Below are positions 17,326-17,353 of a stretch of DNA of 57,449 nucleotides, in pieces. Location of the stretch: contig JBAYKT010000008.1 of the NCBI GenBank assembly GCA_041664445.1, forward strand, positions 1 to 57,449, written 5' to 3'. The notes below the pieces were generated by a model that was given only the letters and a program-made list of their open reading frames with translations, did not search any database and was not told the DNA's origin. This DNA is from Patescibacteria group bacterium (GTDB lineage Bacteria; Patescibacteriota; Patescibacteriia; Patescibacteriales; UBA12465). The position numbers and the translations under genes are program-made. The number at the start of each line of letters is the position of its first letter. Position 1 is the first letter of the stretch.

Positions 17326-17353
17326 ACTTCGCATAATGTATATTAATACACCT
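17326..17353. other. dif-like Xer recombination site (right arm divergent)
   Basis: ACTTCGCATAA-TGTATA-TTAATACACCT; 16-nt core CGCATAATGTATATTA equals the E. coli dif core; lies about 90 bp upstream of xerC. Confidence 0.6.

Follow-up and report, generated by a model that had tools for sequence, protein, structure and literature searches.

Site and xer gene on the contig

The analysed stretch of DNA (the window) comprises the 57,449 nucleotides of contig C8 from a 22-contig assembly of 969,383 bp, which is 92% complete and derives from a member of the Candidatus Falkowbacteria, ultra-small and uncultured bacteria of the Parcubacteria (Patescibacteria, CPR). At 16283..17239 on the minus strand, it contains an xer gene coding for a 318-aa XerC/D/A-like tyrosine recombinase, which was identified by its domain match and by the alignment of its catalytic residues to XerD. 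Upstream of this gene, the 28-mer ACTTCGCATAATGTATATTAATACACCT is located at 17326-17353 on the plus strand, 86 nt from the xer start codon to its left arm. It shows an 11-6-11 layout and reads ACTTCGCATAA-TGTATA-TTAATACACCT from the left arm via the centre to the right arm. The left arm (17326..17336, plus strand) is proximal to xer and agrees with the E. coli XerC arm at 7 of 11 positions, the central region (17337..17342, plus strand) is the same as in E. coli dif, and the right arm (17343..17353, plus strand) is degenerate. A first-pass annotation of this DNA had proposed a dif-like site upstream of a Xer gene, with a 16-nt exact core shared with E. coli dif and an atypical right arm, and all three descriptions were confirmed. 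Because dif of E. coli K12 is GGTGCGCATAATGTATATTATGTTAAAT (PMC2731167), the core shared with the 28-mer amounts to 16 nt; this run, CGCATAATGTATATTA, comprises seven of the 11 XerC-arm bases and the entire centre, and it extends three bases into the other arm. The right arm departs from the XerD-arm consensus and is symmetric with the left arm at 5 of 11 positions.

The 28-mer is present in a single copy in the 92% complete assembly, the runner-up match showing 8 mismatches, and none of 100 dinucleotide-preserving shuffles matched it at up to 3 mismatches. Elsewhere in the assembly, nothing was found nearer than 7-8 mismatches to the dif sites of E. coli or B. subtilis (with an approximate query for the latter), and searches for extra half-sites of the left or right arm across the own genome returned none. 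We also detected one site in the sampled parts of the complete closed chromosome CP066698.1 (977,025 bp), which represents the same genus as the host and is referred to as G005 in the following. Both the layout (about 28-31 bp, inverted arms of about 11 bp and a short centre) and the occurrence of one copy per chromosome, as judged from these two genomes over the parts covered, are those of Xer/dif sites in general.

The copy number also bears on the question of whether a mobile element (an IMEX or a phage) may use the site for attachment, with the Xer-like gene coding for its integrase. Xer-like integrases and dif-like att sites are indeed known on mobile elements (PMC8138268), but the site is present only once, a second half-site or direct repeat is absent genome-wide, the synteny alr-ftsQ-small ORF-dif-xer is retained among relatives, the recombinase occurs once per genome with 65-97% identity across the order, and the position opposite dnaA is fixed. 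We regard an attachment site as barely conceivable. An IMEX or second copy of the site in the host genome was rejected as a candidate after the half-site searches had come back empty.

A candidate extended -10 box, TGCTATAAT, was read from the sequence at 17246..17254 on the minus strand, 6 nt before the ATG of xer, and a consensus promoter scan marked 17267->17240 as promoter-like. The string tgctataat recurs at the position of this box in most, but not all, loci of the genus. Because the box ends only six bases before the ATG, the xer mRNA would be leaderless or near-leaderless, and because dif is located about 70 nt upstream of the box, it lies outside of it in the host genus. The other flank of the site contains a G+C-rich hairpin with a T-run on both strands (17372..17392), which probably terminates the minus-strand alr-ftsQ operon that runs up to it. 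After ftsQ, and before the terminator and dif, there is a hydrophobic ORF of 46 aa (17535-17675, minus strand; MEGAFKFLFGLAIFIFGLV...) without a Pfam match, which is kept in the loci L077 and L083 (46 and 49 aa). An Rfam scan of 15900-17800 yielded no family above threshold at the site, so reading it as an RNA element is unsupported. Weak sub-threshold Rfam matches (mascRNA/tRNA-like and rimP leader) were observed in the intergenic stretch 16074-16262, downstream of xer at the orientation switch of the genes and hence within the terminus zone beside the xer-dif module.

Conservation upstream of xer and variation of the right arm

We compared the upstream regions of xer genes, as the first-pass annotation had suggested, in more than 100 related loci across the Falkowbacteria and other Parcubacteria, and about 90% of them were found to keep the site. 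Of 30 loci of the order, 28 contained the 28-mer upstream of xer, and the sequences flanking it were unrelated; the two exceptions showed no match at all, namely L031, which lacks a detectable site, and a locus truncated by the end of its contig. A further 80 loci from named assemblies, with Xer identities down to 57%, contained the site in most cases. The information content amounted to 1.3-2.0 bits at those positions of the site that were not fixed by the search pattern, compared to about 0.1-0.8 bit in the flanks. A phylum-wide search of 401 genomes with the pattern ACTTCGCATAA-N6-TTA, allowing 1 mismatch, gave a match rate close to that of the reversed-pattern control, and a clear signal outside the order was obtained only in family f38 (ACTTCGTATAATGTATATTA). 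Therefore, the exact sequence of the site is lineage-specific, and we assessed its breadth via the loci of Xer orthologues.

The left arm ACTTCGCATAA proved unchanged in all Falkowbacteria-type loci (up to 6 mismatches over the 28-mer), except for a single first-base difference in L009. Its invariance in the per-position table is partly circular, because the arm was required by the pattern, but looser searches still agree, again with L009 as the exception. The central region occurs in relatives in the variants TGTAGA, TATAGA and TGTAGG. As for the right arm, the TTAA was imposed by the per-position search pattern, and the freely scored positions comprise an invariant A8, strongly conserved T5, C9 and T11, and nearly free positions 6, 7 and 10. 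In L014 (~2567-2609), dif is immediately preceded by a partial left-arm duplicate in tandem (TTTTCGCATAA-CAAT-ACTTCGCATAA...).

The right arms of the order can be arranged as a series, which starts with TTAAGCGAAGT (10 of 11 positions symmetric with the left arm; L025, L027, L030, L032, L082, L115 and L125), continues with TTAATCGAAGT, TTAATCAACGT, TTAATTAACGT and TTAATAAACCT, and ends with TTAATACACCT of the host genus (5 of 11). Palindromic sites were found in the other families of the order, whose Xer proteins are 67-71% identical to that of the window. More distant sites of the Wildermuth-, Staskawicz- and Paceibacterota-type (Xer 57-62% identical) resemble AGTTCGCATAA-TTATAG-TTAAGCGAACT and are symmetric at 8-9 of 11 positions. 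Arm symmetry is thus 5/11 in the host genus versus 8-10/11 in the other families and the more distant Parcubacteria. Because the near-palindrome is kept in the other families, it is probably the ancestral form of the site, and the right arm in the window would be derived and degenerate.

The distance between dif and xer is variable within the Falkowbacteria, ranging from 44 to about 1500 nt with whole genes inserted in some loci. Spacings of about 1 kb were observed in L083 and L077, each of which contains one inserted unrelated ORF without a flanking repeat (L083 1595-2353, minus strand, 252 aa; L077 1744-2352, minus strand, 202 aa); neither looks phage-like by eye. Because the order ftsQ-small ORF-dif is kept despite the inserted gene, the gap at the terminus tolerates insertions. 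Three other families of the order, represented by L025, L026 and L032, have their full dif 200-1500 nt from xer and carry an extra copy of only the left arm ACTTCGCATAA just upstream of the xer start (at about 40 nt in L025 and about 10-35 nt in L026 and L032), in sense orientation and followed by AT-rich sequence without a right arm. These copies may be relics of an older, promoter-overlapping dif or autoregulatory half-sites. The Wildermuth-, Staskawicz- and Paceibacterota-type sites show the opposite orientation and end 5-10 nt before the ATG of xer. They contain CATAAT/TATAGT-like boxes (L130-L152), and because they end so close to the ATG, they overlap the xer promoter or the 5' end of the gene; Xer, if it binds there, should thereby influence the expression of its own gene.

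These arrangements raise the possibility that the site mainly serves as an operator for self-repression of Xer, with dimer resolution taking place elsewhere or not at all. It would account for the invariable location of the site upstream of xer, for its overlap with the promoter at 5-10 nt before the ATG in the other Parcubacteria, and for the separate left-arm half-sites that precede xer by 10-40 nt in L025, L026 and L032. However, it does not explain spacings of 44 to about 1500 nt with whole genes in between in the Falkowbacteria, nor the full 11-6-11 recombination architecture, nor the exact coincidence of the site with the skew switch and the polarity flip of AGGGAAG described below, and an alternative dif is absent from the assembly. 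We consider a mainly regulatory role very unlikely, and regulation by the site could come in addition to dimer resolution and not in its place. The related suggestion of the first-pass annotation, a half-site for autoregulation, likewise fits poorly with a full 11-6-11 site at such variable distances from xer.

Terminus position and converging heptamers

The GC skew of the window is positive over roughly the first 16 kb and negative over the remainder, and the long ORFs switch strand, from plus to minus, in the interval 15981-16283. The zone in which the skew turns extends from this gene-orientation switch (15981/16283) to dif (15982..17325). We compared these data with G005 and with OW818634.1 (G006), a second complete genome of the same genus with 895,742 bp. 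The site of G005 is located at 203,581 and dnaA at 711.5 kb, resulting in replication arms of 508 and 469 kb. Twenty 20-kb samples of G005 gave a positive skew on the side that runs from 712 kb across the coordinate origin to 203 kb, and a negative skew on the other side (205-712 kb). The cumulative GC skew, which the first-pass annotation had named as a check, reaches its maximum within the 201-205 kb bins, which include the site. In G006, the site at 84,944 coincides exactly with the flip of ORF orientation, with dnaA at 588 kb; the skew change is weaker than in G005 and spread over about 20 kb. The site is therefore found opposite dnaA in both complete same-genus genomes, at the GC-skew shift point opposite the origin that is generally typical for Xer/dif.

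The same position is indicated for other families of the order, where the skew sign changes at the respective site in G038 and G034, whose contigs were long enough for this analysis. The skew was higher to the left than to the right of the site in 39 of 41 Falkowbacteria-like loci (Xer at least 67% identical) and in all 16 Wildermuth-, Staskawicz- and Paceibacterota-type loci. Coding strands are usually G-rich. Because the coding strand of xer is on the right side in the loci of this comparison, such a bias would oppose the higher skew observed on the left. The first-pass annotation had named a better dif elsewhere at the skew inflection, together with a lack of conservation, as the outcome that would speak against its proposal; since the site itself is located at the inflection and is conserved upstream of xer, this objection falls on both counts. 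Position and conservation also lend support to its suggestion of a CPR counterpart of the known adjacent xer-dif modules.

An ftsK gene is present outside the window (contig C1:73415-75958, minus strand) and codes for a protein of 847 aa with 4TM, alpha, motor and gamma domains, as in all relatives tested; it therefore includes the winged-helix gamma domain that belongs to FtsK/KOPS-guided activation of Xer. The gamma domain is followed by a highly acidic, E/D-rich C-terminal tail of about 120 aa (residues ~725-847); textbook FtsK proteins end C-terminally in gamma.

Analyzing the sampled sequence of G005, oriented from the origin to the terminus, AGGGAAG stood out among the skewed heptamers with a ratio of 47:1. 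The sampling covered about 40% of the G005 chromosome and about 29% of that of G006, and over the resulting 697 kb (G005, G006 and the window) the word occurred 102:2 on the leading versus the lagging strand, a ratio to be read with its post hoc choice from all heptamers in mind, and part of which may reflect coding bias. It is the most skewed and the most frequent of 35 heptamers of the same composition (skews 0.52-0.91). The window contains five copies on the plus strand (6942..16929; starts at 6942, 14671, 15401, 16629 and 16923) and 11 on the minus strand (18087..55787; 18087, 18268, 19257, 19831, 23309, 31717, 32431, 33804, 36370, 49622 and 55781), all of which point toward dif, corresponding to correct polarity in 16 of 16 cases and a density of 1 per 3.6 kb. 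The copies at 16629 and 16923 are antisense inside the minus-strand xer gene and that at 49622 is antisense to a plus-strand gene; because they still point to dif, the polarity follows the site and not the gene orientation. The flip of AGGGAAG polarity occurs between 202,867 and 204,005 in G005 (site at 203,581) and between 83,742 and 85,204 in G006 (site at 84,944), and across the window, G005 and G006 the reversal is found 0.4-1.2 kb from the site. KOPS were predicted in the dif region of L. lactis by a skew of at least 90% and a frequency of at least 1 per 40 kb (PMC3384302). AGGGAAG lies within both limits and reverses at dif, so its behaviour appears KOPS-like, and we propose it as a candidate polar word for FtsK gamma. 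The classical words GGGNAGGG and GAGAAGGG were rejected as the main polar word, being rare (10:3 and 11:3 in 400 kb).

A single recombinase and its place among Xer systems

The Xer protein contains the Pfam domain Phage_integrase (4e-40) and a SAM-like N-terminal domain. All catalytic residues are present in the alignment to XerD (1A0P), namely R (GLRVAEL), K (GKGSK), H-x-x-R (HTLRH), H (LGH) and Y (IYTHV), as in a Xer-type tyrosine recombinase with the catalytic set R-K-H-R-H/W-Y. The nearest solved structures are those of XerD (1A0P; 5.6e-33), followed by XerA (4A8E and 5HXY), while XerH (5JJV) matched weakly and only in the C-terminal part (E = 2.8e-11). The NCBIfam scores stay below the cut-offs of all families compared (bits versus cut-off: XerC 217/335, XerD 215/330, XerA 186/220, XerS 114/267). 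Of 41 sampled relatives, 40 encode a single orthologue, with 65-97% identity through most of the order, and the closest one noted (97%) is encoded on CP066698.1.

Counting the tyrosine recombinases per genome, another check named by the first-pass annotation, gave exactly one, the Xer orthologue, in G005, G006, G015, G010 and G013, of which G005 and G006 are complete and G015 is near-complete with 3 contigs. The host assembly contains two, Xer and a phage-type integrase of 371 aa on contig C7, and as this count covers 92% of the genome, the missing 8% could encode a second Xer. The description of a lone Xer thus holds for the complete genomes of the genus and has to be slightly corrected for the host assembly. 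The integrase gene (C7, ~47.9-49.0 kb; L002 1366-2481) adjoins an ORF of 147 aa (L002 2789-3232), by eye a possible phage terminase small subunit, and a counterpart of the integrase is absent from the complete same-genus G005 and G006 and from the 3-contig G015. The C7 locus is probably a prophage remnant.

The second protein and the arm symmetry of only 5/11, which resembles that of two-recombinase dif sites, are what would be expected if the right arm were bound by a second, divergent recombinase in a hidden XerC/XerD-like pair. However, the protein on C7 is of the phage-integrase type and its gene neighbours a possible terminase small-subunit gene, G005, G006 and G015 combine the same site type with one tyrosine recombinase each, and the sites of the order's other families are palindromic at 67-71% Xer identity. 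Large serine recombinases are present in 0-3 copies per genome and located away from the site, G015 having none; they were rejected as a hidden partner because of this copy number and their unconserved position. A hidden pair therefore appears hardly credible, and the target of a second, divergent Xer, as considered in the first-pass annotation, is disfavoured.

We compared the single-recombinase arrangement with the known Xer systems. It shares with XerCD/dif and FtsK/KOPS the 28-bp site with an 11-6-11 layout, the 16 consecutive bases comprising XerC arm, centre and TTA, the single copy at the terminus skew switch, the FtsK gamma domain and a G-rich polar word converging on the site. In contrast to XerCD/dif, a single recombinase takes the place of the two paralogues, its gene is linked to the site, the XerD-type arm (TTATGTTAAAT) is absent, and the candidate polar word is AGGGAAG instead of GGGNAGGG; one tyrosine recombinase each in G005, G006 and G015, with scores below the equivalog cut-offs, does not correspond to a XerC/XerD pair. 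In XerS/difSL of streptococci and lactococci, a single recombinase is encoded next to its site at the terminus and acts FtsK-dependently on asymmetric arms (PMC5357621, PMC3384302), and the KOPS of L. lactis is the heptamer GAAGAAG (PMC3384302). The system of the window resembles it as a gene-site module at the terminus with one recombinase, asymmetric arms and a heptameric polar word, but difSL has 31 bp with an 11-bp centre compared to 6 bp here, XerS has about 356 aa compared to 318 aa, and the score against NF003462 (114 bits) stays far below the cut-off of 267.

The XerH/difH system of Helicobacter and Campylobacter likewise links a single recombinase to its site, with arms bound unequally by XerH and a need for FtsK (PMC5241119). 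It differs in the nearly symmetric arms of difH, compared to 5/11 here, and in the size of XerH (about 360 aa); moreover, the site is unrelated to the difH consensus (TGAAAA...TTTTCA core, PMC2731167), and the protein match is weak. Archaeal XerA/dif has in common a single XerC/D-like recombinase, a classical 28-bp dif, sometimes a xerA-dif module, and the third-best family score. Archaeal XerA acts without FtsK, and archaeal dif sites are often not opposite the origin (PMC5357621), whereas in the window's genome a full FtsK with the gamma domain is present and the site lies at the skew switch; the score against NF040815 is 186 bits compared to a cut-off of 220. By its sequence features, the system would therefore belong to the single-recombinase kind of Xer/dif and represent neither XerS, XerH, XerA nor a XerC/XerD pair. 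The recombinase may belong to the 'Cand' subgroup of Xer-related tyrosine recombinases from candidate phyla, for which Smyshlyaev et al. (2021) classified the proteins, without a site, terminus or polar word (PMC8138268). The prediction of dif sites by Kono et al. (2011) covered 16 phyla and predates CPR genomes (PMC3025954). The kind of system is well known, and a published description for this lineage was not found: full-text literature on dif, Xer or chromosome dimers in CPR/Patescibacteria yielded none, with most subscription journals outside the coverage.

Because every feature by which a dif is recognized bioinformatically is present, we read the 28-mer as the target of a single Xer in dimer resolution. 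It is very probably the chromosomal dif of this Candidatus Falkowbacteria genome, used by the recombinase encoded next to it at cell division. Two Xer monomers would bind the site cooperatively, one of them tightly on the invariant left arm ACTTCGCATAA as the strong site and the other weakly on the degenerate right arm, via the inner TTAAT, A8/C9 and protein-protein contacts. The asymmetry of the arms may set which monomer cleaves first. Septal FtsK, steered by the converging AGGGAAG words, would then arrive at the Xer-dif synapse, where its gamma domain presumably triggers strand exchange. That one protein acts on both arms is an assumption, because the arms are about as dissimilar (5/11 symmetric positions) as the XerC and XerD arms of E. 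coli (6/11). The best precedent for a single protein on unequal arms appears to be XerH, which binds cooperatively and with higher affinity for one arm, the asymmetry setting the order of cleavage, and needs FtsK in vivo (PMC5241119). This precedent is partial, as the arms of difH are nearly symmetric.

We give evenly divided credence to the broader proposal that the Falkowbacteria, and probably much of the Parcubacteria, possess a distinct single-Xer system, in which xer is hard-linked to a classical 28-bp dif composed of XerC-type arms, FtsK acts via AGGGAAG KOPS, and the second arm decayed from 10/11 to 5/11 within the order while the recombinase stayed single. If true, this would provide a natural series for the evolution of arm asymmetry and a fixed order of strand exchange without gene duplication, and the right arms graded from 10/11 to 5/11 under one recombinase would be a ready panel of substrates for the need of arm symmetry. 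The complete logic of FtsK, KOPS, Xer and dif is apparently kept in genomes of less than 1 Mb, where it operates with a single recombinase rather than a pair. The site may also serve as a sequence-level marker of the terminus for the Falkowbacteria and related Parcubacteria, which would help to close or orient metagenome-assembled genomes and to expose misassemblies. A separate observation on the host assembly concerns contig C17 (9505 bp), which has a G+C content of 48.9% compared to 36-40% in all other contigs and may carry an rRNA operon or represent foreign or mis-binned DNA.
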